A stretch of DNA of 64,000 nucleotides from an uncultured Gammaproteobacteria bacterium (GCA_965230935.1 OZ246400.1:848864-912863), one strand, 5' to 3'. Positions 33,568 to 52,519 are shown, counted from the first letter of the stretch. Numbers and translations are program-made. Notes: generated from the letters alone by a model not told the origin.

Positions 33568-35032
33568 TCTTGTTGAGTAGCCATGACGCCAAATTTTGTT
33601 TGCTGTGTTGTTTGATACAACTGCGTGCATGGTTGGTCTTCGCAAATTTGATCCAGTCAGGACTTGGTCCCTTTCTTTTTTTATCAGTGGTGATGTCAAC
33701 CAAGTCCCCACTCTTGAGCGGTTGGCTCAGTGGTGTCATCGTGTCATTTACTCGCGCTCCAACGCAGGTATTACCAACATCGGTATGGATGGCATAGGCA
33801 AAATCGATTGGTGTCGCATTTTCCGGTAAATCAATTACGTCTCCTTTAGGTGTAAAGACAAAGATGCGATTTTGAAATACGTCGATCTTGAGATGCTCCA
33901 GATCTTGGAGTCGTTGCATAATATCTTTTTGTACTTCAGCTAGTTCTTTAATCCATTGCAATCGCTTTGAAGGAATTCGCGAACCTTGTTCATCATAATG
34001 CCAATGGGATGCAATACCGTACTCAGCATCATCATGCATTTCTTGTGTTCGGATTTGAAATTCTACAATCTCGCCATTGGTACAAAACACGGTTGTGTGA
34101 AGTGACTGATAGCCATTTGGCTTTGGCTGCGCAATGTAGTCTTTGATCCGTCCTTTGAGGGGGCGCCACACTTTATGAATAATTCCTAGAACGGCATAAC
34201 AGTCTGCGACGCTGGGAACGATAATTCGTAGAGCTACAAGATCGTAAATCTTATCAATATTACGATCATACTTCATCAGTTTTTTATACAGACTGTACAA
34301 TCGTTTTGTTCGCCCATGAATATCAAGTGTTGGAATAGACTCTTTTTCGAGCTCTTTTTTGATCTGCCGTTGAATTTGACGCAGATATTTTTCTTTCTCA
34401 TCAAATTGTTCGCTGATCAGGTTTTTTACCCATTTATATTCTTTCGGATATACATATTTAAATGATTCGTCCTCAAGACGTCCTTTCATATCACCCATCC
34501 CAAGACGGTTGGCAATCGGTGCATAGATCTCCAGGCTTTCTAGTGCAATGCGGTATTGCTTTTTTGGGGGGAGTGAGTCAAGTGTTTGAAGGTTATGTAA
34601 TCGGTCGGCAAATTTTACAATCATCACGCGCACATCATTGGCAACGGCCACAAACATTTTACGAAGGTTTTCAATGTACCGTTCTACACCACGATATTTG
34701 AGCTTTCCTAATTTGGTGATTCCTGAAACAATGGTCTCAATGTCTTTTCCAAAGTTCTTTTCAATATCCTCAAGCGTTACATTGGTATCTTCTGGAACAT
34801 CATGCAGCAATGCCGCCAAGATAATAGATTCATGCATTTCCATCTCAGCCAGCAATGTTGCCGCGGCGAGCGGATGGATAATATATGGTTCTCCGGATTT
34901 TCGACGTTGTCCTTTATGAGCATTATTCGCAAAGTCATAGCAGAGTTTGACCAATTCTAAATCCGCCCCTTTGTTTTTGGCGGAAATAGTCTTCAATAGT
35001 CGATCAATGGTATAAGCCTTTGGTTTTGCCAT
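33548..35032 (-). CDS. rel: Short RelA/SpoT homolog (HD hydrolase, synthetase and TGS domains; no C-terminal regulatory domains)
   Basis: HD motif HDVPEDT and a synthetase domain. It ends shortly after the TGS domain, at 494 aa. Confidence 0.9.
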   Translation of the reverse strand: MAKPKAYTIDRLLKTISAKNKGADLELVKLCYDFANNAHKGQRRKSGEPYIIHPLAAATLLAEMEMHESIILAALLHDVPEDTNVTLEDIEKNFGKDIETIVSGITKLGKLKYRGVERYIENLRKMFVAVANDVRVMIVKFADRLHNLQTLDSLPPKKQYRIALESLEIYAPIANRLGMGDMKGRLEDESFKYVYPKEYKWVKNLISEQFDEKEKYLRQIQRQIKKELEKESIPTLDIHGRTKRLYSLYKKLMKYDRNIDKIYDLVALRIIVPSVADCYAVLGIIHKVWRPLKGRIKDYIAQPKPNGYQSLHTTVFCTNGEIVEFQIRTQEMHDDAEYGIASHWHYDEQGSRIPSKRLQWIKELAEVQKDIMQRLQDLEHLKIDVFQNRIFVFTPKGDVIDLPENATPIDFAYAIHTDVGNTCVGARVNDTMTPLSQPLKSGDLVDITTDKKRKGPSPDWIKFAKTNHARSCIKQHSKQNLASWLLNKITTEEN

Positions 35033-35063
35033 ATGGATATCGCTATATTTAGCGTACTCTTGC

Positions 35064-35092
35064 TTGACAATTTTGTCTATATGTGCTATAGT
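35064..35092 (+). promoter_or_regulatory. Near-consensus sigma70-type promoter TTGACA-N17-TGcTATAGT
   Basis: Exact -35 hexamer, 17-bp spacer and an extended -10 element, read directly from the sequence. Confidence 0.55.
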
Positions 35093-35098
35093 CTGCGC

Positions 35099-35160
35099 AG
35101 GTGATGTTTAGGTATAACCTAAGCCAAGAGGGAAACCGCCAGACTGTTGGCGGTTTTTCT
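35099..35160 (+). ncRNA. Candidate small RNA of about 60 nt (promoter to terminator unit, no ORF)
   Basis: It starts about 7 nt after the -10 element. It contains the ttaggt-ata-acctaa hairpin and ends at a strong terminator. Confidence 0.35.
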
Positions 35161-35165
35161 TTTGT
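35134..35165 (+). terminator. Intrinsic terminator (8-bp stem aaccgcca/tggcggtt followed by TTTTTCTTTTGTTTT)
   Basis: Read directly from the sequence. Confidence 0.7.
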
Positions 35166-35281
35166 TTTAGGCAATTTGCTATTGACCAGAGTATGCAGGA
35201 ATGATACCCTATGCTCGTGGTTCGAGAGGGCCTGAGCATCACCATTGGCACGAGGTTACCTCATTCGAGCCACACAAAGTA

Positions 35282-35309
35282 TCCCAGCATTGCTGGGATT
35301 TTTTGTTTG
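35282..35309 (+). terminator. Intrinsic terminator (cccagca/tgctggg followed by TTTTTTGTTTG)
   Basis: Read directly from the sequence. It follows a 10-bp G.U-containing stem at about 35212-35271 that is more stable in the plus sense. Confidence 0.55.
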
Positions 35310-35310
35310 T

Positions 35311-35364
35311 AAATCAAAACGCCCCCTCCTGCGTTGTGCGCGAAATGCGCTGCAGAAGGGGACG
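35311..35364 (-). terminator. Intrinsic terminator of the high-GC lipoprotein gene (13-bp GC-rich stem followed by TTTTGATTT on the minus strand)
   Basis: Stem cgtccccttctgc/gcaggagggggcg containing two G.U pairs in the minus sense. Confidence 0.5.
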
Positions 35365-35421
35365 CCTCAAGTTGTTGGTGAGTGTGTGGATCAGTTGCGC
35401 TGGTGAGGCGCTACCGAAGCA

Positions 35422-36381
35422 TCACTCGCCAGGACAGGTGACGACCTGGTTGAACGATTCGCTCCCGCACGAGTAGTCGTCGCAAACCGTCAGGGTGATG
35501 GTGAACTCGCCGCACTGCACGAACTCGACCGTGGCGTAGGTCTCGGTGTCGTACTTGATCAGCGGGGACTGCACGTCGGCCTCGACCGCCGTGACCTCCC
35601 ACTGGTAGCTGTCCACCATGCCGAAGTGGTCGGTGCTGGAGCCGGACTTGGTCCCGTCGAGGCTGATGTGCTTGAGCGTGTCGATGGCGATCGACTGCGG
35701 CTCGTTGATCAGGTCGATGGGGTTCCAGCTCTGGCTGTACGCCATGGCCTTGATCCGGGCGGTGGGCGCCGGCGCCTGGGTGGCGTAGCCACCGAGGCTG
35801 AGCTCGTAGGTGTGGTTCTCGATCTCAGCCGCGTGCGCCGTGGCCTCGATCGTGAGCACGCCGTAGCGGTACTCAGTGAAATCCACGTCCAGCTCGAGCT
35901 CCTCGTGCGTCTTGGGCTCGAACACGGTCGGGATGGCGCTCTTGTGGCCGGCCTCGATGGTCTGGAACCGGTTCTTGGTCGCCACATCGAAGTCCGCCTC
36001 GCCGTCGCCGTACACCACCACGTCGATCACCTCGACGTCCACGCTGTACTCGCACCCGTTGTGCACCTGGATCATGCGCTGAGTCGCGCCGCCCAGGTAC
36101 GTATCGGGGAACTCGTACGTCGCAGGGATGGTGATGCACTTGGACAGCGCCGCCGCCTCCACGTCCTGCTCGTTGTCGCTCGTCTCGTCGGACCCAGCCA
36201 GCTCGGCCGGCGGCCCCTCGGGCTCACCGTGCTCGCCGAAGCCGCAGTCGCCCTTGTAGATCTCGGCGACCTCCCAGCCGCGCTCGATCGTGGGGTCGGA
36301 CTCGGCCATGCAGCCGATCTGCGGGGTGGCAGCGATGAAAAGGACGAAGATGAGCGACGCGTTGTTGATAACCCGCTTCAT
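35422..36381 (-). CDS. High-GC secreted lipoprotein of unknown function (319 aa, Asp/Glu-rich, three Cys pairs)
   Basis: Signal peptide with a lipobox (FIAATPQIGC) and a GGAGGC RBS. About 65% GC, in sharp contrast to its flanks. The antisense ORF at 35626-36552 is compositional noise. Confidence 0.7.
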   Translation of the reverse strand: MKRVINNASLIFVLFIAATPQIGCMAESDPTIERGWEVAEIYKGDCGFGEHGEPEGPPAELAGSDETSDNEQDVEAAALSKCITIPATYEFPDTYLGGATQRMIQVHNGCEYSVDVEVIDVVVYGDGEADFDVATKNRFQTIEAGHKSAIPTVFEPKTHEELELDVDFTEYRYGVLTIEATAHAAEIENHTYELSLGGYATQAPAPTARIKAMAYSQSWNPIDLINEPQSIAIDTLKHISLDGTKSGSSTDHFGMVDSYQWEVTAVEADVQSPLIKYDTETYATVEFVQCGEFTITLTVCDDYSCGSESFNQVVTCPGE

Positions 36382-36554
36382 GAGAATGCCTCCGTTGCTT
36401 ACTGTCTCTTACTGTTGCGCTCAAACGCCGGCACCTGCCGACTCGTACTTGGGGTAAACCCGTTCCGTAGGGAATACATTTACTGTTTTTGGAAAATGCC
36501 CTCCTTACGAAGCGTTTTCTTAAACAACGTAAAATCAACTCGAAATAACTGAGA

Positions 36555-36583
36555 AGTATAGCACAAAAAAGCAGTTTTGTCAA
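36555..36583 (-). promoter_or_regulatory. Near-consensus promoter TTGACA-N17-TGcTATACT on the minus strand, about 170 nt upstream of the lipoprotein gene
   Basis: Reverse complement of 36555-36583, read directly from the sequence. Confidence 0.5.
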
Positions 36584-36631
36584 GGTTTGAAGGCTTAAAT
36601 AAGCTAATTTTGCTAAAAGTAGCAATAATAA

Positions 36632-36660
36632 AAATTGCCCAAATTGGGCAATTTTTACTT
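36632..36660. terminator. Bidirectional intrinsic terminator downstream of topA (aaattgccc-aaatt-gggcaattt between A and T tracts)
   Basis: Read directly from the sequence. Confidence 0.65.
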
Positions 36661-36679
36661 TTTTCAATTGTGAAGAAAT

Positions 36680-38911
36680 TTATTCTTGATCCGGTGCAGT
36701 TCCTTTATACTTACACACTTTATCACTACATTTAGTCGTGCCTTTGGCCCCGTATACTAAGAGTGATTTACAATCGGGGCATTTTTCTCCAGTAGGCTTA
36801 CTCCAGAGCGCAAAGTCACAATCAGGATATTGATTACAGCCATAAAAACTTCGACCACGTTTGCTCTTCTTTTCAATAATCTCTCCTTTTTTACACTGAC
36901 TACAATTTACTCCGGTCTTTTTTTCAATCGCTTTAATGGTTTTGCAATCCGGATACCCAGTACACCCAAGGAATGGACCATATCGACCATGTTTGAGTGC
37001 CATTGGTTTACCACATTTTTCACACGGCTGCGCATCTGCTTCAAGGGATGCTTCTTGTTCTCGCTCCTCTTTATCAAATGGTTCGGTATGTCGACAATCA
37101 GGATAGCCGGTGCAGGCATAAAATTTTCCAAAGCGGCCAGTTTTAATCACCATGGCCTTACCACAGTCAGTACAGGTTTGATCTGTAGCTTCTTCGGTGA
37201 GTTCTTTTTTGTCAATTGTTTCTTCTTTTTCCATAACCAATTTATTAAATGGTTCATAAAAATCATGTAAAAGCGTAGTCCACTTCTTTTTGCCGTGTGC
37301 GATAGAATCAAGATCAGTTTCCACCTGTGCAGTAAAATCATAATCCACAATTTGTGGAAAGTGTTTGGTAAGAAGGGTATTCACTACCGTGCCGATATCA
37401 GTTGGTTTAAGTCGTTTGTTTTCAGTCCGTGCAACATAATTGCGTTTCTCAATCGTCGCAATGGTCGGTGCATAGGTTGATGGGCGACCAATCCCATGTT
37501 CTTCCAGTACTTTCACCAGCGTTGCATCAGAATAGCGAGCCGGTGGTTCTGTAAAATGCTGTTTTGCTTCTACCGTTTTGGCAGTGACCACTTGCGCTTC
37601 TTCAAGTTCAGGCAATAAGGTTTCTTTGGTGAGCCCGGGGTACACTTTCAAAAATCCTTCAAACGTAATTGTCGAACCACTTGCACGGAACAGATAGGTT
37701 TTCTTCCCGTCATTTTCCACATCAATTGTGGTTTGGGCAAGTTGGGCATCTGCCATTTGAGTTGCCACGGCACGGTTCCAGATAAGCGCATAGAGCTTTA
37801 ATTGGCGCGGGGTTAGATGCCCCTTCATATCTTGCGGTGTGTAATGAATATGTGTTGGACGAATCGCTTCATGCGCTTCTTGCGCACCTTTTGCCTTTTT
37901 GCCAAATACTCGTGGTTTTGTCAGTTGATATTCTTTTCCAAAATGATCTGCAACAAAGCTATTTGCTTCCCCTAAAAATTTTGATGAAAGATTGACGGAG
38001 TCAGTACGCATATACGTAATCAATCCGACTTGTGAACCATCAATGGCAATACCTTCGTATAATTGTTGCGCAATCATCATGGTTTGTTTTGAAGAAAATC
38101 CAAGTCGATTGTTTGCGTCTTGTTGCAGAGTCGAGGTGCGATACGGTGGTTGCGGTGCTTTTTTCTTGTCTTTACGAACCACCTTCGCAATGTGATAGGC
38201 ACTGTCTTTAAGATCATCAGTAATCGCTTTGGCGGATTTCTCAGATTTGATCGCAAACTTATCAAGTTTTTTTCCACCAATGCTATGGAGCTTGGCTTCG
38301 AATGTTTCTTTTTGTTTTGTTTCAAATACACTTGGAATACTCCAATACTCTTTCGGTACAAATGCGGTAATCTCATTTTCACGCTCAACAATTAAGCGCA
38401 TGGCAACCGATTGTACACGTCCAGCTGATAATCCACGCGCTACCTTTTTCCAAAGAAGGGGAGAGAGACGATATCCAACCAAACGATCAAGTACCCGTCG
38501 TGCTTGTTGCGCATCAACCATCTGCATATCAATGGTACGAGGTTGCTTGAGCGCTTCGTCAATAGCATGTTTGGTAATCTCATGAAACGTAATACGCTTT
38601 GATGTTTTAGGATCAAGCCCAAGCGCATGAGCCAAATGCCAAGAGATAGCTTCACCTTCACGATCTTCGTCAGTGGCAAAGTAGATTTCTTCTGCGCGTT
38701 TTGCGGCTTTTTTTAGTTCAGTAATCAGTTTTTTCTTATCATCAGGAATAACATATTCAGGTGCAAAATTATCTTCAACATCGACACCGATTTTGCTTTT
38801 TGGCAAATCTCGAATATGACCAAAAGAGGATTCAACTTTGTATCCCTTTCCTAAAAATTTTGAAATGGTTTTTGCCTTTGTAGGCGACTCAACGATAACA
38901 AGTGATGACAT
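36680..38911 (-). CDS. topA: DNA topoisomerase I with C-terminal zinc ribbons
   Basis: TOPRIM N-terminus (IVESPTKAK) and multiple C4 zinc ribbons. Confidence 0.95.
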   Translation of the reverse strand: MSSLVIVESPTKAKTISKFLGKGYKVESSFGHIRDLPKSKIGVDVEDNFAPEYVIPDDKKKLITELKKAAKRAEEIYFATDEDREGEAISWHLAHALGLDPKTSKRITFHEITKHAIDEALKQPRTIDMQMVDAQQARRVLDRLVGYRLSPLLWKKVARGLSAGRVQSVAMRLIVERENEITAFVPKEYWSIPSVFETKQKETFEAKLHSIGGKKLDKFAIKSEKSAKAITDDLKDSAYHIAKVVRKDKKKAPQPPYRTSTLQQDANNRLGFSSKQTMMIAQQLYEGIAIDGSQVGLITYMRTDSVNLSSKFLGEANSFVADHFGKEYQLTKPRVFGKKAKGAQEAHEAIRPTHIHYTPQDMKGHLTPRQLKLYALIWNRAVATQMADAQLAQTTIDVENDGKKTYLFRASGSTITFEGFLKVYPGLTKETLLPELEEAQVVTAKTVEAKQHFTEPPARYSDATLVKVLEEHGIGRPSTYAPTIATIEKRNYVARTENKRLKPTDIGTVVNTLLTKHFPQIVDYDFTAQVETDLDSIAHGKKKWTTLLHDFYEPFNKLVMEKEETIDKKELTEEATDQTCTDCGKAMVIKTGRFGKFYACTGYPDCRHTEPFDKEEREQEASLEADAQPCEKCGKPMALKHGRYGPFLGCTGYPDCKTIKAIEKKTGVNCSQCKKGEIIEKKSKRGRSFYGCNQYPDCDFALWSKPTGEKCPDCKSLLVYGAKGTTKCSDKVCKYKGTAPDQE

Positions 38912-38961
38912 ACGAAAAAAATACTAACTGTGCTTGAGCATAAATGAGGCTCTGATGATTG

Positions 38962-40344
38962 TCAAATGGTATACGGATTAGCAGCGCGATTTTCAAGAAT
39001 ATCTTGCTCAGATATCCAGTGGGTACGCAACTCACCAGCAAGGAATACTGAGCCGGTAATAAGGACAATATCTTGTGGGTGCGCCCGGTTACGTGCTCGC
39101 GCAAGTGCTTGTTGTGGTTGCGCGTATTGTTTTACATCAGCGCAATACTGTTTGGCGAGTGTTGCAAGCATATGTGGCTGTGCTGATTTACGATAGGTAT
39201 TTTTCGTGAACCGCGTGGTGTATATTGCAGTAGCATGTGGAGCAATCGTGCGGATGATACGTAGCAAATCTTTGTTTTCAGCAATACCAATCACCAGATG
39301 AACCCGCGTGTCTTTGCGGTGTTTACGAATGGCAACAAGAGCATCGCGGGTTGAGCGCATTTTATCTGGATTGTGCGCGCCATCAACAATCACCAGTGGT
39401 GTGTCATAGATTACCTCAAAACAAGTTGGTCGGCTGACAGTTGCTAGACCTTTTTGAGTAGCTATCTTTGATAGTCGAAGCGCATGTGCTGCCTCAATGG
39501 CAAGTGTGGCATTACTTGCTTGGTGTGCACCGATAATCGGCATGGAGTATTGCTGTCTCTGGTAGGTAAACTCGGTGCCAAGTTCGGACAGTATGATATT
39601 GCTTGGCGCACTGACATAATGTATTGTTTTTGGTTTGTGCTTTTTCATCTCCTTTGCAAACACCGCACGAACTGCTTTGGTTTTCTCAGCACTGATAAAG
39701 TGCGTTCCTGATTTAATGATCCCAGCTTTTTCCCAGGCAATTTTGGTTTTGGTTTTGCCCAGCAAGTCCGTGTGATCAAGTCCAACATTGGTAATGATGG
39801 TGACATCAGGAGTGGGGATGGTATTGCTTGCGCTAAAGCGTCCGCCAAGGCCGACCTCAATGACCGCATACTGAACTTTTTTTTGTGCAAAATGCAAAAC
39901 AGTCATGGCAAACATGACTTCAAAAAATGACACCATCCCAAATGGAGAAATCTTGGCGGCAATCGTAAGTGCACGGCGCATTGTTTTGACTAAGCGCGTA
40001 AAGGCAATCAAGGAAATGAATTTTTTATTCACTCGGATACGCTCGATCGCTGTGGTCGGATGCGGGGAGTAGGTTGACCCAACTGATTTGCCGGCAGCGA
40101 GCAGGATTTCATGTACCATCTGTGTGGTAGAGCCTTTACCACTTGTTCCGGTGATATGAATATAATGAGGGATTGCACGTTCGGGGTTGCCGAGCAAATC
40201 TAAAAACCACTGTGTGCGTTGCAAGAAGATCTCGCACTCTTTGTAATTATTCATGTATTCCTTTTTGGGGAATTGGTTGATAAAATCAATCAGCTCTTTG
40301 AGTGATTGATGATAGTCATTGATTTGGGTTTTGCGATAGCGCAT
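38962..40344 (-). CDS. folC: Folylpolyglutamate synthase / dihydrofolate synthase (Mur ligase family)
   Basis: HITGTSGKGST P-loop and an EVGLGGRF motif. Confidence 0.85.
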   Translation of the reverse strand: MRYRKTQINDYHQSLKELIDFINQFPKKEYMNNYKECEIFLQRTQWFLDLLGNPERAIPHYIHITGTSGKGSTTQMVHEILLAAGKSVGSTYSPHPTTAIERIRVNKKFISLIAFTRLVKTMRRALTIAAKISPFGMVSFFEVMFAMTVLHFAQKKVQYAVIEVGLGGRFSASNTIPTPDVTIITNVGLDHTDLLGKTKTKIAWEKAGIIKSGTHFISAEKTKAVRAVFAKEMKKHKPKTIHYVSAPSNIILSELGTEFTYQRQQYSMPIIGAHQASNATLAIEAAHALRLSKIATQKGLATVSRPTCFEVIYDTPLVIVDGAHNPDKMRSTRDALVAIRKHRKDTRVHLVIGIAENKDLLRIIRTIAPHATAIYTTRFTKNTYRKSAQPHMLATLAKQYCADVKQYAQPQQALARARNRAHPQDIVLITGSVFLAGELRTHWISEQDILENRAANPYTI

Positions 40345-40353
40345 GAAGGTATT

Positions 40354-41427
40354 TTACAAACGAATGTATTGTTGTCCACCGGTGTCTTTTGCAAAGCCGG
40401 CAAGTTCCATTGCCATTATAGTACGGAGAATATCTTTTTGTGGCAAATTACTTTTGGCAATCAGACGGTCAATTGTCTGCGGGGTAGTATTAAGCAATGC
40501 GTATAGCTGGGTAAATTTTTCAGGCACTACTCGTGATGTTTGGGATGACGATGCAACTTCAAGTAGCTGCAAGATCTGGTCAGGATGCGTGATACTATAT
40601 GCTCCTTGTGCGATCAACTCATTTGCCCCGGCACTGGAATGTGAAAAAATGGATCCAGGAATTGCGCCAACAGATCGGTGGTATTCAAGTGCTAATCGTG
40701 CGGTGATCTTCGCTCCGGATTTACTCGCCGCTTCAATGACCAACGTCATAGCACACATTCCGGCAATGATACGATTACGACGTGGATAGGAGTATTTGTG
40801 TGATGGCATTGTTGGCGGAAATTCACTGATGATCGCGCCGTGGTGTTGAATGATATTTCGTGCCAAGCCTAGATGGTGTTTGGGGAAGAGGTGTGCATCA
40901 TTGCATCCTCCTGGCAAAATCGCTGCAGTGTAGCCACCACTAGCAAGGGTGGTTTGGTGCGTGTGACCATCAACACCATAGGCAAGGCCGCTGATGACCC
41001 CTACATTGTGTTGCGTCAGAGGCGGCACAATATGTTCGATCACTTGTCGTCCATATGGAGTGATTTTTCGTGAACCAACAACTGCAACAAGTGGTAGTTG
41101 TGGTGGTGGGAGTTTGCCTCGCACAAATAGTATTGCAGGCGCGTCTGGAATTTGTTTGAGTAGTTTTGGATAGGGGACATCTTGGTAGGTGATCGGGTGA
41201 ATTAACTCATCTACGAGATATTGCCAAAGACGATCAGGGTTGCATTGTTTGCGCCAATCACAAAACTCCTCAATTTTGATTTGCGGTACGTGTGGTGTTT
41301 TGATTTTGGAAGACGACAATGTCCACACCTTTTTGGGGTGATGGTGATGCAACACAGCTCTCAGGTGTTGTGGACGCCACTTGGGATAGGATGCGATTGC
41401 CGTCAAAAACCATGACGGATGCTCCAT
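40354..41427 (-). CDS. dprA: DNA processing protein DprA/Smf
   Basis: Rossmann-like motifs VAVVGSRK and ISGLAYGVD. Confidence 0.88.
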   Translation of the reverse strand: MEHPSWFLTAIASYPKWRPQHLRAVLHHHHPKKVWTLSSSKIKTPHVPQIKIEEFCDWRKQCNPDRLWQYLVDELIHPITYQDVPYPKLLKQIPDAPAILFVRGKLPPPQLPLVAVVGSRKITPYGRQVIEHIVPPLTQHNVGVISGLAYGVDGHTHQTTLASGGYTAAILPGGCNDAHLFPKHHLGLARNIIQHHGAIISEFPPTMPSHKYSYPRRNRIIAGMCAMTLVIEAASKSGAKITARLALEYHRSVGAIPGSIFSHSSAGANELIAQGAYSITHPDQILQLLEVASSSQTSRVVPEKFTQLYALLNTTPQTIDRLIAKSNLPQKDILRTIMAMELAGFAKDTGGQQYIRL

Positions 41428-41430
41428 AGC

Positions 41431-41970
41431 TTAGCGCAAAAATTTTTCCTCAATGAGGATTGGTAATTGATTGAGTATACCACGAAGCTTCATGCGCTCC
41501 AAGAGTGAGAGGTTTCCTAAAACGTATTTTTCTGTTGGAATACGTGGGTGTCGTCCAATGCCAATACGAATTCGCCAAAATGCTTTTGTTCCAATCTCAT
41601 GAATGACTGAAAGCACGCCATTGTGTCCAGCCGCACTTTTATCAAATTGTACGCGAACTTCTCCTGGAGCAATATCCAAGTCATCGTGAATTACCACCAA
41701 ATCTTCTGCAAGCGCATCGTGCCAATGGAGGAGTGCACGAATACTTACTCCGGAGCGGTTCATGTAGGTTTGTGGTTTTGCCAAAACAACTTTGTGTTTT
41801 CCCATCCGTCCATCACACGTGATGGCATTGGTTTTGCGTTGTTCAGTCCAGTTGGAGCAAGACCACTCGCTTTTGTGTCGACGCAGATGATCTACTGCTA
41901 AAAAACCAACATTATGTCGGTTATGTTCGTATTGTTTTCCTGGATTGCCAAGTCCAACAATGAGCACCAT
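41431..41970 (-). CDS. pth: Peptidyl-tRNA hydrolase
   Basis: LIVGLGNPG and HNVGF motifs. Confidence 0.93.
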   Translation of the reverse strand: MVLIVGLGNPGKQYEHNRHNVGFLAVDHLRRHKSEWSCSNWTEQRKTNAITCDGRMGKHKVVLAKPQTYMNRSGVSIRALLHWHDALAEDLVVIHDDLDIAPGEVRVQFDKSAAGHNGVLSVIHEIGTKAFWRIRIGIGRHPRIPTEKYVLGNLSLLERMKLRGILNQLPILIEEKFLR

Positions 41971-41971
41971 A

Positions 41972-43327
41972 TTAACGCTTATACTTTCGAATATACACGG
42001 TTACCGGTGTTCCTTCAAAATCAAAATGTTCACGAAGTTGATTTTCAAGAAAATGGATGTAGGAATCATGTACCGATGTTTTGTATTTAATGACCGCCTC
42101 AAACACCGGCGGTTCAGTGGCAACTTGAGAGAAGGAAAGAACTTTGGGATGTCGTGATCCTTTGCCGCGTGACGGACGATGTTTTTTTGTAACGGTCTTG
42201 AGCCATGTTTCAAGCACGTCCGGTTCAATAATTTTTTTCCGTTGTTGCACCACACGCTCGACTGTTTCAAAAATTTGGTGAACTTTAGTTCCTGATTTGG
42301 CACTCACAAATATAATCGGTGCCCAGGTTAAAAATGGATAATACCCATGAATCATTTTAATAAACAAGCTTCGCGCTTCTTGGCTGTGATCTTCAACCAG
42401 GTCCCATTTGTTGACGATCACAACAATCCCGGCGTGCTTGCCCTCGATGAGGCTCATTAGATGTTTTTCTTGTGACGAGAATGGCTCAGTGGCATCAAGG
42501 ACAAGTAAAGCGACCTGAGCATCATCAAAGGATCGAATACTGTCAGCTACACCAAGTTTCTCTAGTCCTTTTTGTACCCGTGCTTTTTTACGAATTCCGG
42601 CAGTATCAATGAATCGAAAATACTTGTCGTCGTGGAGAATATCCACATCAAATGATTCACGAGTGGTATGTGGAATCTCGCTTACAATGACTTCTCGCGC
42701 TCCGGCTAAGGCGTTTAAGAGTGATGATTTGCCAACATTTGGTTTTCCAATAATCGTAACCCGTGCTGCAATCTCTCGTTCAAGAGCGCAAGAGTGGTCT
42801 TGGCGTAAGGGGAGCAATTGATGTACGGCGTCAAGCATGTCACCAATGCCGCTTCCGTTTGCTGCAGAGACGGGAAGTGGGTCACCAAATCCAAGTGCAC
42901 TCCATTCATGAGAGAATGCATGGGTACGCCAATTATCGGTGTCAGCCTTATTTGCAACAACCACCACCGGTTTGTTTAGTTTACGTAGTCGTTTTGCTAA
43001 TTCTTTTTCTTGTGGCAATGTCCCAATTTGCACATCAACAACAAACACCACAACATCAGCTTCGGCAAGCGCCAGCTCTGATTGCTCAAGTACTTCTCGT
43101 TCAAACAACAGTTCGTTTTCAAAAGTGAGTCCGCCGGTGTCAACTACCATGATTGCCTCACCGCGCCAGTACAAGATTCCGGTGTTGCGCGTGCGTGTGG
43201 TTCCGGAGACATCAGAGACCAGTGCTTTTTGTTTTTCAATGAGTCGATTGAACAATGTTGATTTTCCAACATTTGTTCTCCCTACTAACGCTATCGTTGG
43301 GTACGTTGTTGGTGCTTTGCGTTTCAT
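41972..43327 (-). CDS. der: GTPase Der/EngA (two GTPase domains plus KH domain)
   Basis: Two G-domains (GRTNVGKST and GKPNVGKSS). Confidence 0.93.
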   Translation of the reverse strand: MKRKAPTTYPTIALVGRTNVGKSTLFNRLIEKQKALVSDVSGTTRTRNTGILYWRGEAIMVVDTGGLTFENELLFEREVLEQSELALAEADVVVFVVDVQIGTLPQEKELAKRLRKLNKPVVVVANKADTDNWRTHAFSHEWSALGFGDPLPVSAANGSGIGDMLDAVHQLLPLRQDHSCALEREIAARVTIIGKPNVGKSSLLNALAGAREVIVSEIPHTTRESFDVDILHDDKYFRFIDTAGIRKKARVQKGLEKLGVADSIRSFDDAQVALLVLDATEPFSSQEKHLMSLIEGKHAGIVVIVNKWDLVEDHSQEARSLFIKMIHGYYPFLTWAPIIFVSAKSGTKVHQIFETVERVVQQRKKIIEPDVLETWLKTVTKKHRPSRGKGSRHPKVLSFSQVATEPPVFEAVIKYKTSVHDSYIHFLENQLREHFDFEGTPVTVYIRKYKR

Positions 43328-44787
43328 AGCGATGCTGTGGTGATATCGTCTCCCAAGATAATCAGAATGTCGCTGTCCTCTTGTGCGGTGGTTGGGATTT
43401 CTTGTGCTGGTATTACTTGGGCATCAAGAAGTTCTGCCAATTGTGTTGTTTCATCTTCAAATTCACCATCGCGCAAATCATAGATTACGGTTGAGGTGAA
43501 TGGGCGATTTTCAGCGTTTCCAATACTATGCACGAAATGATCCTGCTCGGTAATGCGTGCTTTGATCTTGGCCGCGAGTCCTACTACCCAGGTACCATTT
43601 TGAATTTCAATACTTGCCGCACCTTCTGGTTTAATAATTTCTTCTTCTTTTTCCGGAACAATCACGACTCGATCAGATAAGGTGGTGGTTCCGTTGATTT
43701 GTCCGCCAAAGATGTCACGAATCGCAATTTGAATTTGGCGAAACGTTCGATCTCGTGGCAAAAGCATGTAAAGATTTTCACCACTGCCATTGGCAAGCAG
43801 GCCGCCCGGTGCGTCAGATAATACTAAGCTGTTGATATTATCAGTGTCTAAGTTTTTTGCAATACGTACCAGTTGCAATGCCGTACTAATATCAGCATTG
43901 GTGACAATATTGTGCGAAAGCGTCTTGCGCAAGCTGTTTAACTTTCCTGGGTTAAGTAGCGTGGAAAGGGAAAGGAGTTTGTTTTTAAAGCCAACAATAA
44001 CTTTTTGTTGACGGCGTGATCGGGCAAAGTCCGAACCCTCGCCATTGCCTCCATGACGCGAGCGAGCATAGTGTAATGCTGTTTCACCATCAAGGTGTTG
44101 TGGTCCGGCTTCAAACTCAACGGTTTGGTATTGATGATTGTCAGTAGGGAATCGGGTATCAATAAAATCTCGATCAACCACTACATCAATACCACCTACT
44201 TCGTTGATGAGTTGTTCGAACCCGGCAAAATCCATGCGAACGTAGTAATGGATTGGCTGTTGGGTGATTTGTTCAATCACGCGGATTGCATGTTCGGCAC
44301 CATTACCAGGCTCTTCAAGTTCACCAAACGCATTTGCATGATTAATTTTACGCCATCCATATCCTGGGATAGGTACGGCAAGATCGCGGGGAATAGACAC
44401 CATGGAAATTTCATCTGTCGATGGTTTGATGCTCGCTAAGATAATGGTATCAGTGAGATAGGCACCATCATGTCCTGCTCCGCCCATTCCCAAAAATACA
44501 ATGTTAATCCGGTCTGCTTTCAGTCCGTCAATTCTTCCTTCATCATTCAAAATCAGATTACGCAGTGTGCCGAAAAAACCAGAATGATGTTCGCCTCGAT
44601 ACCATCCTTCATCGCTGTTAGGTCCATCAGTACCAAAGACTACTCCGCTTACCCATGTGGTAAAGAAGAGTGCCGCAATGATTAAAGAAAAAAACAACCC
44701 AGTGCGGCGAAGGACTCGCATAAACCCGCCTTTGCGGGCTGTTGGGCTTTCTTGGTGTTTGATTTGTTGTAGAAAGTCGTTTTCCAT
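43324..44787 (-). CDS. LytR-CpsA-Psr (LCP) family cell-envelope phosphotransferase
   Basis: N-terminal TM segment and an LCP core (NIVFLGMGG...DTIILASI). Confidence 0.85.
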   Translation of the reverse strand: MENDFLQQIKHQESPTARKGGFMRVLRRTGLFFSLIIAALFFTTWVSGVVFGTDGPNSDEGWYRGEHHSGFFGTLRNLILNDEGRIDGLKADRINIVFLGMGGAGHDGAYLTDTIILASIKPSTDEISMVSIPRDLAVPIPGYGWRKINHANAFGELEEPGNGAEHAIRVIEQITQQPIHYYVRMDFAGFEQLINEVGGIDVVVDRDFIDTRFPTDNHQYQTVEFEAGPQHLDGETALHYARSRHGGNGEGSDFARSRRQQKVIVGFKNKLLSLSTLLNPGKLNSLRKTLSHNIVTNADISTALQLVRIAKNLDTDNINSLVLSDAPGGLLANGSGENLYMLLPRDRTFRQIQIAIRDIFGGQINGTTTLSDRVVIVPEKEEEIIKPEGAASIEIQNGTWVVGLAAKIKARITEQDHFVHSIGNAENRPFTSTVIYDLRDGEFEDETTQLAELLDAQVIPAQEIPTTAQEDSDILIILGDDITTASL

Positions 44788-44951
44788 GCTTATTCAGCGT
44801 CAGTATACTCTAAAAATAGTGAATAGACTAGAGGTGGGTATGCACATGAATCACTGTATTTTTTGCTTAAATTTTGACAAATTTTTTTCTGCAAAAATAA
44901 GCATATATTTTGTTTTTTTCTTAAAATAAGCCAAAAAACTGCATTATAAAC

Positions 44952-44980
44952 TTGACAAAAGCACCAAAATGTGTTATAGT
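44952..44980 (+). promoter_or_regulatory. Near-consensus promoter TTGACA-N17-TGtTATAGT upstream of island 2
   Basis: Read directly from the sequence. Confidence 0.55.
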
Positions 44981-45006
44981 CTTTTGTTCTTTTCATGTGC
45001 TTTTTG

Positions 45007-45097
45007 CGCGAGTTGTGTAGAGGAGGGGTCAGTAGATTGGCTCAAATATTCAAAGGAGGCCTGCAATCTACGACAGCAGTTCTCTGCACAACTCGCG
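45007..45097 (+). ncRNA. 91-nt structured leader element: 16-bp outer stem (one G.U) enclosing an 8-bp inner stem, with the SD-like AAGGAGG exposed in the apical region
   Basis: cgcgagttgtgtagag pairs with ctctgcacaactcgcg; gtagattg pairs with caatctac. Read directly from the sequence. Confidence 0.4.
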
Positions 45098-45144
45098 TAA
45101 GAAGTCTGGTGCTTGGTCTGAAACCCAAACGTTGGAGGAAGAGG

Positions 45145-45303
45145 ATGCCTTTGAACAACCCATTGATGGTCACCTGCGGGAACCGTCGCTGTCGCGCGCA
45201 CGTGGCGCTGCTGTACATGCGCGTGCCGTGTACCTCGGTCCGATTGTATCGCTCATACCTATGGGAGATACTGAGGATGTTATTTACAAATCGTGTAGAA
45301 TAA
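45145..45303 (+). CDS. Possible 52-aa Cys-rich small ORF in the leader
   Basis: Good RBS (GGAGGAAGAGG then ATG). Translation is MPLNNPLMVTCGNRRCRAH...; there is no other support. Confidence 0.2.
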   Translation: MPLNNPLMVTCGNRRCRAHVALLYMRVPCTSVRLYRSYLWEILRMLFTNRVE

Positions 45304-45481
45304 TCAGGTATACCTGTACGAATCAGCTGTCTATCTCTGAGGTGCAACGTCGCATCTTGAGCTCTAAGCAATTGAGCGTGCAGGTATGCACACATCGATG
45401 ACCTTGGAGGGTCCGATGATTTTTTCCGTTTTGACCACTTTGGCCACTATCAGCAACCCCAACGACTCCGAGGAGGGAGCC

Positions 45482-47170
45482 ATGAGCGACGACAAGAAGA
45501 GCAAGAAGAAGTCGCCGCCGGCCCCGGCGGAGGCGAACGAGGGCGATGCGAAGCGCAAGTACGAGCCGGGTGACGGGCCCTACGAGCGCGTTCACGCGGA
45601 CGTCATCGGCTCGATGGAGGCGCAGTACTGCTGCAATCCTTTCGACCAGGCCGACGCGTGTGACTTCACCGGCGGTCCGGACGAGCTGACGTTGCCGAGC
45701 TTCAAGGCGCTCAACAGCAGCATCAGCCGGGTGCACGGGCTCAAGCGCGGGTTCTTCCCGGGTGACGAGGCCATCTACGCCCGTTGCCCGCAACACGCGC
45801 ACGAGGTCCGGTACGGCAACCGGACGATCCGCGAGACCTTCAAGTACACGGCCGATCGTTGGGCCGGTAAGGGTCGGACCCCGAGCACCTGGATGGCGCA
45901 GCCGCTGCCGCACCCCGAGGCCTTCAATAAGCACCCGTACTGCACTCCGTGCAGCGGGAGCTGCGGCGGCCTGTGGCTCGAGACCAACCTGTACGCCCCG
46001 CAGCCCGAGGCGCTCGTGGAGCAGCTGGAGGACGTCGAGTCCACCGGCGCGCTCACGCGGGAGCACTTCGGCGCGCATCTGCTGTGCAAGCGGTGCGTGG
46101 ACGCTGACGCGGTCGAGCAGGGGACCCTCGTCGAGTTCGCCACGATCGTGGCGGCCTTGGGTTGGGAGCCGCGGGAGTACGTGCCCGAGGCGCTCGATCT
46201 CGAGGGGTTCGAGGGGACGCAGGTCACGGTTGAGCACCCGCAGCTCGAGGTCTCGCAGAAGCTCCAGGCCGTGGTTCGTTCGACTCACACGTCGTTCGGG
46301 GTGTTCGCCCGCATCGTGGATGACGGACGTGACGCCCTGTTGCGTTGGGAGGACGTCAACGCGGACTACAACGTGGGTGACGTGATCGACATCTGGATCG
46401 CGCGGCTGCACTGCAAGACGGGTGAGGACGGCGAGTCGGATCGCCTCTTCATCTGGGCGGCGGACACCAAGCCCGTGCTCTTGGCGGACGTCAAGTCCGG
46501 CCAGGAGTTCGATGGCGAGGTGGCCTCCCACGCGCCCTTCGGCATGTTCGTGCGCATCGGTCCGGCTCTGCCGGCTGGTGTCGTGCACAAGAGCGTGCTG
46601 AGCGGCCGTTCGCGCGACGACTTCCCGGTGAACACGTTCGTCCGGGTCATGGTCAGCGACGTGGACCACAAGCGTTCTCGACTCAACCTCGTGTTGGTCG
46701 AAGACGTGGAGGGAAGCAGAGCGGTCCAGGACTGGAAGGCGCAGGCGCCGGGAGCGGAGGACGTGGTCTCGGTCGACCAGGAGGTGGGGAAAGGTAAGAC
46801 CCCCACCAAGGTCGGCCTGACCATGGTTCCGCCCAAGTCCGAGCAGCCCAAGTCCAAGAAGTCCCGGTTCGTCCCCAGGCGCCGCACGACGTACGTGGTG
46901 GGTCCCAAGCCCGCCGCTGCGCAGCAGCGTGAGGAGGTCGAGGCGCAGCTCGCCGATGCCGCCAAGGTGTTCGGTGAGGCCGAGCACATCCAGAAGACCG
47001 GTACCTACGGGGCCGGATCCAAGGACAGCATCGGTCGCTCGCTCGAGGGGCGCAAGGCCGGTAAGGCCAAGCGCTCGAAAGCCGAGGAGATCAAGGATCG
47101 GACGCTCAAGGTGTTCGGCGACCTCTTCAACGTCCGCCAGGGCAAGGGCAAGAAGGGCAAGGGCAACTGA
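45482..47170 (+). CDS. High-GC 562-aa protein: N-terminal Cys/His-rich region, three S1/OB-like RNA-binding domains and a Lys/Arg-rich tail
   Basis: GAGGAGGG RBS 6 nt upstream of the ATG. One canonical S1 motif (GQEFDGEVASHAPFGMFVRIGPALPAGVVHKSVLS) and two degenerate ones. About 66% GC with GC3-rich codons. The antisense 622-aa ORF is noise. Confidence 0.7.
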   Translation: MSDDKKSKKKSPPAPAEANEGDAKRKYEPGDGPYERVHADVIGSMEAQYCCNPFDQADACDFTGGPDELTLPSFKALNSSISRVHGLKRGFFPGDEAIYARCPQHAHEVRYGNRTIRETFKYTADRWAGKGRTPSTWMAQPLPHPEAFNKHPYCTPCSGSCGGLWLETNLYAPQPEALVEQLEDVESTGALTREHFGAHLLCKRCVDADAVEQGTLVEFATIVAALGWEPREYVPEALDLEGFEGTQVTVEHPQLEVSQKLQAVVRSTHTSFGVFARIVDDGRDALLRWEDVNADYNVGDVIDIWIARLHCKTGEDGESDRLFIWAADTKPVLLADVKSGQEFDGEVASHAPFGMFVRIGPALPAGVVHKSVLSGRSRDDFPVNTFVRVMVSDVDHKRSRLNLVLVEDVEGSRAVQDWKAQAPGAEDVVSVDQEVGKGKTPTKVGLTMVPPKSEQPKSKKSRFVPRRRTTYVVGPKPAAAQQREEVEAQLADAAKVFGEAEHIQKTGTYGAGSKDSIGRSLEGRKAGKAKRSKAEEIKDRTLKVFGDLFNVRQGKGKKGKGN

Positions 47171-47258
47171 GACCTGGTAGAGGCCAGGCACTACACGACA
47201 ACAACAACTGGTTTTGGGGCGGCGCGGACAACGGAGTAACTTCCCGCGTTTGCGTCGC

Positions 47259-47308
47259 CCCTGTCCAATAGTGCAGCTCAGTATACTGAGAGATACTATT
47301 GGGCAGGG
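47259..47308 (+). promoter_or_regulatory. 50-bp near-perfect palindrome (14-bp arms flanking the self-complementary CTCAGTATACTGAG), immediately upstream of the RBS of the next gene
   Basis: Read directly from the sequence. Operator-like. Confidence 0.35.
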
Positions 47309-47326
47309 AAGACAAGGAGGGCCATC

Positions 47327-48001
47327 TTGAAGAGTTTTTCCTCTTTTCGTCTGGTTCGGCGAAGAGGGTTTCGATGGTCAGTGCTGCTTGTCATGCTGGT
47401 CATCTTCATCTTGATTTTTGTCCCGTTGGAGGTGGCACCTATGACGACTACGCCGGAACATGTGGTGAGCTGTGATGCGCCCAGCAAGGTCGTCGTCAGT
47501 TTCACTCAGGAGCAGATGCGCCAACAGGTGAGCCGGGTGTTTCCGATCAATTTGCCTGAGGTGGTGCGCATGGTGGACGTGGTGCTGCACGATCCATCGA
47601 TCACCTTGAACCAGATCAGCGCCAGCACAGTCACACTGGAGCTCGGCGCAACGTTGGTGGTGAGCACGCCATTGCCTGGTGTTCCGGAAGGGCGGTATCG
47701 TGCAACGATCAGCGCCACCGGATCGTTGGTGTACGGCAATGTGCACAAGGCCGTGTACATCAGTGAGTTTGCCATCACGCAGCTCACGCTCAGCGGACGT
47801 CTTGCGCATGTTCAGGACTCGACGCGCTTGCGCGCGTATGTCCAGGAGGTGTTGCAACAGCAGGTGCTGAGTAATGTGCCGCTGTACCGGACAAGTGAGG
47901 CTCAACTCGCCACGATCGCACCAAATGCGGCTGTGGTACAGGCTGCACTCACCCCCAGTGGGGAGGTGCACATTGGTCTGAGCTGGGATGAGCACCGCTG
48001 A
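47327..48001 (+). CDS. DUF1439 (YceB-like) family protein with signal peptide; TTG start
   Basis: AAGGAGGG RBS 7 nt upstream of the TTG. Basic-hydrophobic N-terminus. Resemblance to the DUF1439 pattern. About 58-60% GC. Confidence 0.55.
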   Translation: MKSFSSFRLVRRRGFRWSVLLVMLVIFILIFVPLEVAPMTTTPEHVVSCDAPSKVVVSFTQEQMRQQVSRVFPINLPEVVRMVDVVLHDPSITLNQISASTVTLELGATLVVSTPLPGVPEGRYRATISATGSLVYGNVHKAVYISEFAITQLTLSGRLAHVQDSTRLRAYVQEVLQQQVLSNVPLYRTSEAQLATIAPNAAVVQAALTPSGEVHIGLSWDEHR

Positions 48002-48028
48002 TCACTCGACAACTCATACAACCGTTGG

Positions 48029-48065
48029 CCGCGCGAGCAAACTGCACGCGCGGCTTTCGAATTTG
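48029..48065 (+). terminator. GC-rich hairpin terminator ending island 2 (gccgcgcg...cgcgcggc followed by tttcgaattt)
   Basis: Read directly from the sequence. Confidence 0.45.
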
Positions 48066-48091
48066 CAAAAAAACTAAGGAATTTGTATACT
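48063..48091 (+). promoter_or_regulatory. Promoter TTGCAA-N17-TATACT for hup
   Basis: Read directly from the sequence. Confidence 0.5.
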
Positions 48092-48129
48092 TGCGCTGTT
48101 ATTGTTAACTCTTAACGCCTACCAACATT

Positions 48130-48414
48130 ATGGCTAAAGGAATTACTAAGTCTCAACTTATGAATGAGTTGGGTGAAAAGTGGGGTGTCAGCAAAAAAGA
48201 GGCTGCTGAAATGCTTGAAGCATTAGTGCAACTTGCATACCACCACGCAAAGACTGATGGGGAAATGATGATCCCTGGTCTTGGGAAGCTGGTAAAAGCA
48301 CACCGTAAAGCACGTATGGGTCGTAACCCAGCAACCGGTGAGCAAATTCACATCCCTGCTAAGACTGTGGCAAAGTTCCGTTTAGCAAAGGCCGCAAAAG
48401 ACGCAATTCTCTAA
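48130..48414 (+). CDS. hup: HU/IHF family DNA-binding protein
   Basis: 94 aa; GFGKF-like arm (IPGLGKLVKAHRKARMGRNPATGEQI). Confidence 0.9.
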   Translation: MAKGITKSQLMNELGEKWGVSKKEAAEMLEALVQLAYHHAKTDGEMMIPGLGKLVKAHRKARMGRNPATGEQIHIPAKTVAKFRLAKAAKDAIL

Positions 48415-48432
48415 ACGTAGAATTACGAGACA

Positions 48433-48458
48433 AAAAAGCCGCGCAAGCGGCTTTTTTG
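48433..48458. terminator. Bidirectional terminator between the convergent HU genes (aaaaaagccgcgcaagcggctttttt)
   Basis: Read directly from the sequence. Confidence 0.7.
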
Positions 48459-48491
48459 ATGGGTATTCCTTTTTCGGTACCTAGTAAAGAC

Positions 48492-48914
48492 CTACGACGT
48501 TGGTGCTGAATCACCTGTCGAGTCATCTGCCGGAGAAGATGGTTCCGGAGGTGAGGCCGGGGCACTTGGGGTTGGTGTTTCAGTAGCTGGTGTTGAAGGG
48601 GCTGCAGGTGCACTTCCTTCGTGTTGAGATTTCTTGAGTGCATCCTTAAGGTTTTTTCCGGCCTTAAACTTGGCTACTTTAGTAGGATTGATGGTAATTT
48701 TTTCACTTGGATTTTGTGGGTTCACCCCAATACGACCTGCACGAACACGTGCGGAGAACGTACCAAATCCAGCAAGAACCACCTCACCGTTCATTTTAAG
48801 GGTATCAGTGGTGATACTCATAAAGGCCTCAACCATATCTTCGGCCTCTTTTTTGCTCACACCAACTTTGGCGCTAATTGCATCGGCTAATTCTGCTTTA
48901 TTCATGTTCGTCAC
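48492..48914 (-). CDS. HU family DNA-binding protein with a Pro/Ala/Ser/Thr-rich acidic C-terminal tail
   Basis: HU core (GFGTFSARVRAGRIGVNPQNPSEKI) plus a roughly 45-aa PAST-rich tail. Confidence 0.85.
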   Translation of the reverse strand: MTNMNKAELADAISAKVGVSKKEAEDMVEAFMSITTDTLKMNGEVVLAGFGTFSARVRAGRIGVNPQNPSEKITINPTKVAKFKAGKNLKDALKKSQHEGSAPAAPSTPATETPTPSAPASPPEPSSPADDSTGDSAPTS

Positions 48915-48968
48915 CTCCCTCTAGGAGTAGGTTATTTTACACAATCAGTGTACCAGAAGTATGCAAAT

Positions 48969-50492: not shown

Positions 50493-50683
50493 ATGATTTT
50501 GGTGGTGCCAAAATCAAAAGAGAAGATCACACGAAGTTATTCTCGTGTGAGAGTCAGTGTGTGGGTGAGATAAGTAAAACGTGTGTACATAAGTGACTCA
50601 ACCAGATGCTGTCTGACGATCTTCGCTTCAATTTCAGCAATTACCTTACAAAATTAAATTTCTGTACCGCTAGTGTAGCGTAT

Positions 50684-51364: not shown

Positions 51365-51513
51365 ATACTGAGTTTTAGGATTGATAATATGTTCAAACTA
51401 TACTAGTATCATCAATACTACTCAAGACAAGTCATGACGGATGGTGCGTGTCCTATATTTAGGGTAGGCATGGTCCGTTATACAGCCACGGGTTGGTTGG
51501 AGGAGTACCTCAG

Positions 51514-52416: not shown

Positions 52417-52443
52417 TCCATACCATCCAACAAACAACACGAT

Positions 52444-52471
52444 GCAGCGTCAACGGCGCTGCTTTGGTTTT
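52444..52471 (+). terminator. Hairpin terminator (gcagcg-tcaacgg-cgctgc followed by TTTGGTTTT) ending island 3
   Basis: Read directly from the sequence. Confidence 0.45.
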
Positions 52472-52491
52472 GGGCTGATATGTCCTGAATC

Positions 52492-52519
52492 TTGCATTTT
52501 TTCTCGATTTTGCTATACT
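52492..52519 (+). promoter_or_regulatory. Promoter TTGCAT-N16-TGcTATACT for infB
   Basis: Read directly from the sequence. Confidence 0.5.

Follow-up and report, generated by a model that had tools for sequence, protein, structure and literature searches.

A GC-rich gene for a probably lipid-anchored protein in the variable topA-relA slot of a Patescibacteria genome

Between the housekeeping genes topA and relA of an uncultured bacterium lies a single gene whose composition differs sharply from that of its surroundings, which raises the question of whether it is a newcomer or an old resident of this locus. The gene was found in a stretch of 64,000 nt (the window; GCA_965230935.1, OZ246400.1:848864-912863), which is filed under an uncultured Gammaproteobacteria bacterium; the genome is that of a member of the Patescibacteria, or candidate phyla radiation (CPR). 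An earlier note on this DNA had described the gene and its borders, island 1, as a foreign-looking secreted lipoprotein gene wedged between topA and the region upstream of rel. The gene order agreed with that position, and the foreign-looking composition proved real. The idea of a recent transfer was largely not borne out, since a related genome carries a homolog, P0008, of similarly extreme composition in the same slot, with a homologous promoter and flanking genes whose synonymous sites are saturated. The best reading is an old islet for a probable surface lipoprotein in a variable slot rather than a recent one-off transfer.

Island 1 (35311-36430) had a GC content of 0.637, compared with a background of 0.447 (standard deviation, s.d., 0.016; 222 windows of 1 kb), corresponding to a z-score of 11.7. 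Sliding 300-nt windows gave 0.35-0.47 in the flanks and 0.63-0.69 over approximately 35300-36450, with sharp edges on both sides (0.41-0.43 before the island, 0.35 after it). The contrast of about 65% with 42-45% in the earlier note was therefore close to the measured 63.7% and 44.7%. Its statement that the codons are rich in G or C at the third position (GC3) was likewise correct: GC3 of the coding sequence (CDS) was 0.94, against 0.386 in 42 host genes (s.d. 0.033; z 16.7), only 18 of 320 codons ended in A or T, and the third-position bases followed the order C3 > G3 >> T3 > A3. Such a GC3 and order are typical of genomes with more than 70% GC. The relative synonymous codon usage (RSCU) of the CDS was anticorrelated with that of host genes (r = -0.46) and, in the comparison proposed by the note, with that of ribosomal genes (r = -0.39); the ribosomal and elongation factor genes showed no preference for G- or C-ending codons. 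Codon usage was close to that in the window's other GC-rich genes. This likeness in RSCU between islands (r 0.85-0.92) was dropped as evidence, because any two genes with G- or C-ending codons correlate and the measure is uninformative. Untranslated and intergenic DNA inside the islands had a GC content of approximately 50-60% by our own base count, far under the GC3.

Two long overlapping open reading frames (ORFs) occupy the island, one of 319 codons on the minus strand and one of 308 codons on the plus strand. GC contents at the three codon positions were 0.59, 0.42 and 0.94 in the minus-strand frame; those of the plus-strand ORF, 0.85, 0.42 and 0.59, are the mirror image expected opposite a GC3-rich gene. 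The 319-aa ORF is the real gene, because the GC3 profile, the promoter, Shine-Dalgarno (SD) sequence and terminator, and the alignment with P0008 all lie on the minus strand. Public annotation of the ENA contig L001 calls the antisense ORF, whose product is also recorded for the 931-kb NCBI/ENA contig. Since the public calls list the antisense ORF, protein databases lack the real product, and the 319-aa protein was not found in a collection of 15 billion proteins.

A word-seeded search of 5.8e9 clusters with the 319-aa protein retrieved no homolog. HMMER (phmmer) against 1.84 billion representatives returned ten proteins, of which only P0008 (283 aa) spanned both predicted domains (E 5.2e-15; BLASTP 27% identity, E 1e-23). 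It is encoded at locus L003 (GCA_964480225.1), where the gene order lytR-der-pth-dprA-folC-topA-[P0008]-[P0017]-ncRNA-relA-parB-parA is that of the window, ncRNA being a non-coding RNA described below; P0008 has the same slot and orientation as the island gene. The GC3 of P0008 was 0.86 and that of its neighbor P0017 approximately 0.78, in a genome whose genes have approximately 0.40. P0017 resembles the island protein in its lipobox, its acidity and a C-terminal Cys. In pairwise BLAST, it matched the island protein with an E value of 0.006 and P0008 with 0.16, so that a role as paralog was rejected; as it is at best a marginal relative, only P0008 was taken as a secure homolog. A profile search with alignment A1 found only P0017, which is not independent evidence, as the query itself contained part of this protein. 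No homolog was detected in JGI metagenomes (searched with the family alignment), IMG/VR, phages or plasmids. The homolog search suggested in the earlier note thus gave one full-length relative in a related CPR genome and none outside these two CPR genomes.

The promoters of the island gene and P0008 were identical at 24 of 29 nt, including 15 of the 17 nt of the spacer (counted by eye in the alignment), and the motif was absent elsewhere in the window and from the other loci, occurring only at the loci of the window species and the L003 species. Because the promoter is homologous, unique to the slot and in the same orientation, this suggests one shared insertion in the two lineages. The lineages are far apart: TopA was 71% and FolC 54% identical between them, six flanking proteins fell within 54-71%, and four-fold degenerate sites in conserved residues of the six flanking genes were 31-38% identical, so that the flanking synonymous sites are saturated. 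The window, L003 and a third lineage, L005, were roughly equidistant.

The slot was surveyed in 80 loci retrieved with TopA, 38 of which keep topA followed by relA. The gap between the two genes was 18-452 bp in 27 of the 38, and the other 11 carried insertions of 0.75-4.8 kb. In the sister lineage L005, the slot is empty, the topA terminator being followed by the ncRNA and relA; L006 was also among the short-gap loci. GC3-rich insertions were found only in the window, L003, L008 and L016, and all encode proteins with an N-terminal signal peptide. Those of L008 (8283-10384) and L016 (8755-10206), from more distant Patescibacteria, had GC3 values of 0.68-0.73 and were unrelated in sequence. The L016 slot protein combines PASTA, immunoglobulin (Ig) and InlB-B-repeat-like domains, with GEGEGE linkers between them.

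The expression signals named in the earlier note, namely an SD sequence of the gene's own, a consensus promoter with a leader of about 170 nt and a terminator with a GC-rich stem, were all recovered on the minus strand (Table 1). Promoter-like sites as such were no more frequent in the island region than in shuffles. The GGAGG SD sequence also precedes P0008 and P0017. The leader could be aligned with that of L003 only at the promoter and SD sequence, and a riboswitch or structured leader was rejected, as the fold was not significant (z -0.26) and there was no Rfam match above chance. The terminator stem lies in a fold of 126 nt (-52.4 kcal/mol, z -6.7 for the whole stretch). The promoter spacer holds an inverted repeat, ACAAAA-N6-TTTTGT, that overlaps the -35 element (window 36562-36583, minus strand; L003 9850-9878) and may serve as an operator.

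The 319-aa protein is acidic, as the earlier note had stated, with an isoelectric point (pI) of 4.2 and eight Cys residues; the mature protein has a pI of 4.1 and 55 D+E against 14 K+R. Its N-terminus has the shape of a signal peptide, with two K/R among residues 1-7 and a Kyte-Doolittle (11-residue) peak of 2.82 at residue 8, compared with at most 1.67 elsewhere. For the lipobox, a PROSITE PS51257-type pattern was used, {DERK}(6)-[LIVMFWSTAG](2)-[LIVMFYSTAGCQ]-[AGS]-C, which P0008 (TMMGC) and P0017 (GAIGC) match. Cys24 of the island protein aligned with the lipobox Cys of both proteins in alignment A1 and with that of P0008 in alignment A2, and the protein is probably lipid-anchored at this residue.

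AlphaFold2, run on a three-sequence alignment, predicted a disordered N-terminal part (residues 1-77) followed by two all-beta domains at approximately residues 78-200 and 205-315. The tether segment has no counterpart in P0008. The first domain matched NCBIfam NF012200 (choice-of-anchor D) over residues 80-158 with 14.7 bits, below the cut-off of 45 (E 0.034). For the second, PF22352 scored 20.7 bits (E 4e-4), under its cut-off of 27, and PF00801 13.5 bits against 23.5. Residues 220-315 matched P0007, P0009 and P0010, which are PKD-repeat proteins by Pfam, with E values of 3.5e-15 to 8.6e-8 (phmmer, 1.84e9 proteins), and residues 207-315 were modelled as all-beta with a predicted local distance difference test (pLDDT) score of 47-78. 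A sequence search of the PDB gave a chance-level match only. P0008 has a Cys opposite each of Cys82, Cys110 and Cys316, and all three proteins share Cys290; the two domains are possibly braced by disulfides. The full-length family is new, with two secure members, and its product is most likely a surface-tethered binding or adhesion module, judging from the predicted architecture.

Table 1. Features of island 1 and of the edges of the topA-relA slot, in window coordinates.
Feature	Position	Strand	Basis
Conserved structured ncRNA; promoter TTGACA-17-TATAGT 35064-35092, core 35100-35273, terminator 35281-35299	35064..35305	+	
GC-rich intrinsic terminator hairpin with U-rich tail	35314..35370	-	19-bp stem
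High-GC tract, island 1, ~64% GC	35320..36440	.	GC 0.63-0.69 vs 0.447, z 11.7
CDS, acidic secreted or lipid-anchored 319-aa protein, TGA stop included	35422..36381	-	GC3; P0008 homology in frame
Putative domain 2, residues ~205-316, divergent PKD-like beta-sandwich	35434..35769	-	phmmer; sub-threshold Pfam
Antisense 308-aa ORF, considered no gene	35626..36552	+	Called in ENA contig L001; mirror codon-position profile
Putative domain 1, residues ~78-200, ASH/PapD-like (choice-of-anchor-D-like) beta-sandwich	35782..36150	-	
Acidic tether, predicted disordered, residues 25-77	36151..36309	-	AlphaFold2 pLDDT <50 for residues 1-77
Predicted signal peptide, residues 1-23 plus Cys24: MKRVINNASLIFVLFIAATPQIG, then C	36310..36381	-	Hydropathy; basic residues
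5' leader, ~167 nt, transcription start site inferred	36382..36548	-	Promoter position
Shine-Dalgarno sequence GGAGG, 7 nt before the ATG at 36381	36389..36393	-	Read from sequence
Sigma-70-type promoter TTGACA-17-TATACT with TG extension	36555..36583	-	Scored 11/12
topA terminator, 13-bp hairpin with T-runs on both sides, inverted repeat I4; upstream slot edge	36629..36657	.	

The junction was checked in independent assemblies. An 87-kb MEGAHIT contig from the ENA (L001, run ERR2281800) showed 100% identity along 12.2 kb that include the whole island, and a Logan contig (L002, run ERR2281801) showed 100% identity over folC, topA and the topA-side border, as far as 100 nt inside the island; the architecture of the L003 species was assembled three times. 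As two independent assemblies reproduce the junction, the island is not a chimera. Several assemblies break or gap inside GC-rich genes: L002 ends at the equivalent of window position 36328, and the end of L004 and an N-gap in L003 (11222-11321) both fall inside P0017. Loss of coverage at high GC, or micro-diversity among strains in the islands, could account for such breaks.

We favor, with middling confidence, a replacement-type variable islet for a surface protein, of foreign-like composition and drawn from a high-GC gene pool for which no donor was identified. A single gene with its own promoter, leader and terminator has been inserted into the otherwise tight and deeply conserved junction from topA to relA, between the topA terminator and the ncRNA back-to-back with relA. 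The sigma-70-type promoter would drive its transcription on the minus strand and the GGAGG sequence its translation; the product would be exported by means of the N-terminal signal peptide and is probably lipid-anchored at Cys24. An acidic, disordered tether of approximately 50 residues would then display two Cys-bearing, Ig-like beta-sandwich domains, the first ASH/PapD-like and the second PKD-like. A tethered build with two Ig-like domains is typical of cell-surface binding or adhesion modules. Slot and promoter are common to the window and one sister lineage, the slot being empty in another and in most Patescibacteria; two relatives at a greater distance carry unrelated GC3-rich genes for secreted proteins in it. 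The extreme GC3 led us to infer that the CDS came from a high-GC gene pool, that is, by horizontal transfer. Taken together, the data favor repeated influx from such a pool into a few permissive slots and later amelioration, a picture that the genes of islands 2 and 3 fit.

Several observations weigh against this explanation. No direct or inverted repeats were found to flank or link the three GC-rich islands of the window in a repeat search of the surrounding 17.7 kb. The borders carry no integrase, the neighbors being topA, relA, parB and folC, and no tRNA, the nearest lying approximately 3.4 kb away. No donor emerged, as no homolog was found outside the two CPR genomes in 5.8e9 clusters, 1.84e9 representatives, JGI, IMG/VR, phages or plasmids. 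The lipobox of the window protein, PQIGC, does not conform to the PROSITE-style pattern, having P and Q at positions -4 and -3, so that of the signal peptide and lipobox named in the earlier note the former has the right shape and the latter is not canonical. The AlphaFold2 model has a mean pLDDT of 58 and hence modest confidence. When amino-acid composition was regressed on GC3 in 432 genes from 77 loci, the island 1 family was approximately 2 s.d. less GC-shifted than its GC3 predicts. Finally, neutral amelioration should have erased the GC3 of an old shared insertion beside flanks that are saturated, and the retention of the extreme GC3 is unexplained by that process.

Since an old shared insertion has kept an undiminished GC3, maintenance in place is a serious rival, although we judge it unlikely. 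The gene would then be native and lineage-specific, inherited vertically since before the split of the window and L003 lineages, its GC3 being actively maintained at synonymous sites, whether through selection on codon choice or on the mRNA, through regulation by codons, or through a local bias in conversion or mutation. Consistent with this, slot, orientation, promoter and a homologous CDS are preserved despite the saturated four-fold sites of the flanks, both copies still have a GC3 of 0.86-0.94, an exhaustive search gave no homolog outside these CPR genomes, and the untranslated and intergenic DNA of the islands is far less GC-rich than their third positions. The amino-acid composition also remains near that of the host (GARP 0.23, FYMINK 0.23, K > R), below the prediction from GC3. 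This deviation is suggestive, not decisive: it amounts to only about 2 s.d., the values of 46 background genes with GC3 above 0.8 span a range that includes it, and a claim that host-like amino-acid composition proves native origin was downgraded accordingly. The other GC-rich genes look like ordinary high-GC imports, the composition of isl2_594, isl2b, the 176-aa gene of L003 and the L016 gene being concordant with a high-GC origin, and island 3 shows amelioration in operation. Ribosomal and elongation factor genes do not favor G- or C-ending codons, which speaks against known translational selection; the sister genome L005 lacks the gene; and we know of no mechanism that maintains GC3 in place.

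A broader form of this idea, which we advance tentatively and consider unlikely, is that the clade keeps a small set of lineage-restricted, often secreted genes at GC3 0.7-0.94 in genomes with a GC3 of 0.39, an intragenomic dimorphism in codon usage. Were it true, some force on synonymous sites, such as a regulatory device, adaptation at the mRNA level or biased conversion, would outlast neutral saturation, and such genes would be systematically mis-called on the antisense strand and hidden from protein databases.

A very recent transfer from a high-GC bacterium into the window genome alone, with the L003 gene as a separate acquisition, appears improbable. The codon pattern does look unameliorated, the slot is often used (occupied in 11 of 38 lineages), and the competence-associated gene dprA lies nearby (window 40354-41427; PF02481 DNA_processg_A; between pth and folC in L001). 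Against these points stand the homologous, slot-unique promoter in the same orientation, which points to one shared insertion, the lack of a donor homolog in any collection searched, and the host-like promoter and SD sequence. The notion that the island arose from chimeric assembly or contamination, or that the antisense ORF is the true gene, draws on the public gene calls and on the contig breaks inside GC-rich genes (L002, L004 and the L003 N-gap), and is very improbable given the junction identical in the 87-kb and Logan contigs, the thrice-assembled L003 architecture, the mirror codon profile of the plus-strand ORF opposite to promoter, SD sequence and terminator, and the minus-strand homology with P0008.

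Mobile-element, integron, cassette and diversity-generating retroelement (DGR) explanations were rejected, as no repeats flank or link the islands in the 17.7 kb searched; for a DGR in particular, there was neither a repeat pair nor a recognizable reverse transcriptase in the ORF lists of 34900-52600, which were inspected by eye with no domain search. A study of horizontal gene transfer in Patescibacteria (PMC12455944) reports that such genomes often carry genomic islands and contains no description of the phenomenon seen at island 1; no publication was retrieved for the run and project accessions.

The other edge of the slot is formed by the ncRNA (approximately 175-205 nt), back-to-back with relA. 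Its minimum free energy was -95.3 kcal/mol (z -8.3). A covariance model matched it in five lineages: the window, L003 (12029-12197), L005 (8300-8472), L006 (3199-3353) and L007 (11261-11452), the last four on the minus strand. Compensatory changes occurred in 19 of 51 pairs among the five sequences, in an alignment that was fitted to the model and so leans towards its structure. Paired cells made up 92.9%, compared with 43-51% in slid controls, and none of 500 shuffles reached the observed values. Many conserved G-U pairs fix the strand of the ncRNA. It matched no Rfam family. Slot genes inserted in the window, L003 and L007 are located on the topA side of the ncRNA.

Two further GC-rich stretches lie in the window, at approximately 45.3-48.0 kb and 51.5-52.4 kb. 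The gene of island 2 (45386-47170, plus strand) encodes 594 aa with a GC3 of 0.89 and an S1 RNA-binding domain (PF00575, E 9e-7); a word-seeded search with this protein gave no homolog and so no donor for island 2. The record for the 931-kb NCBI contig lists an antisense ORF of 622 aa (45323-47191, minus strand) and lacks the sense protein. Beside it, a gene at 47327-48001 (plus strand; 224 aa, GC3 0.69), whose product has a membrane anchor at its N-terminus and matches DUF1439 (PF07273, E 2.8e-10), looks like a partly ameliorated import. In L003, the position next to lytR that holds island 2 in the window is taken by a GC-rich ORFan upstream of lytR (1150-1680, minus strand; 176 aa, GC3 0.87, no Pfam match), and the two have no detectable similarity. 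Island 3 (51493-52416, plus strand) encodes 307 aa with 16% R, GC contents of 0.71, 0.50 and 0.53 at the three codon positions and a composition-regression z of +3.9, the pattern expected if an old high-GC import had its third positions ameliorated. Its end is overlapped by the longest-ORF start of infB (52370-52600, plus strand), a Cys/Arg-rich stretch that does not look native; the true start of initiation factor 2 is probably a downstream Met (MNVTELARR...). Between islands 2 and 3, two convergent genes for putative HU-like small DNA-binding proteins were picked out by eye (48130-48414, plus strand, and 48492-48914, minus strand), which share a 41-nt stretch with 80% complementarity; the C-terminal tail of the second protein is rich in Pro, Ser and Thr.

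Attachment to host cells is the presumed lifestyle of CPR bacteria, and little is known about the surface proteins involved. The island gene has its own promoter, diverges fast, occupies a variable slot and encodes a probably lipid-anchored protein with two predicted Ig-like domains, which makes its product a concrete candidate for host recognition or phage evasion. GC3-rich genes in CPR genomes of intermediate GC content may be missing from protein catalogues, the antisense strand having been called for islands 1 and 2, and results of 'no homolog' for such genes are therefore biased. A syntenic homolog with extreme GC3 beside saturated flanks is also hard to square with simple amelioration.

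Among known systems, the genomic islets of Lawrence and Ochman share with island 1 the atypical GC content and codon usage (RSCU r = -0.46), the empty sites in relatives and the ORFan character; island 1 differs in having no integrase, tRNA, repeats or donor, and in a syntenic homolog that keeps the bias despite saturated flanks. The vlsE loci of Borrelia are GC-rich relative to the genome and consist of lipoprotein genes for fast-evolving surface antigens. Island 1 is comparable as a gene for a probable lipoprotein with GC far above the genome average. It differs from vlsE in lacking silent cassettes and internal repeats (in the window) and a marked GC skew, and gave no hint of segmental gene conversion. 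Variation through vls- or pilS-type cassettes was rejected, as the window holds no silent partial copies: tblastn found no second copy of the island in the 64 kb, and no repeat longer than 16 nt occurred in the surrounding 17.7 kb. Surface proteins that combine choice-of-anchor-D/ASH and PKD domains, such as Porphyromonas gingivalis 2qsv and the multi-PKD adhesins, offer a parallel to the predicted product. Its domains score below both curated cut-offs, no more than two or three full-length members of the family are known, all from CPR, and these features are joined by the long acidic tether and conserved Cys residues.

The closest parallel is with replacement-type flexible islands for surface structures, which are known between conserved core genes from O-antigen (rfb) loci. 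Island 1 departs from these in being a single protein gene instead of a biosynthetic cluster and in a bias that is upward (GC3 0.94), not downward; only two alleles of it are known, from one strain per species. It resembles them in its fixed slot between housekeeping genes, its presence or absence across relatives, its atypical composition without mobility genes and a product that is probably surface-exposed. The slot alleles of the window and L003 are 27% identical between flanking proteins that are 54-71% identical, so that here too a conserved slot holds strongly divergent alleles.

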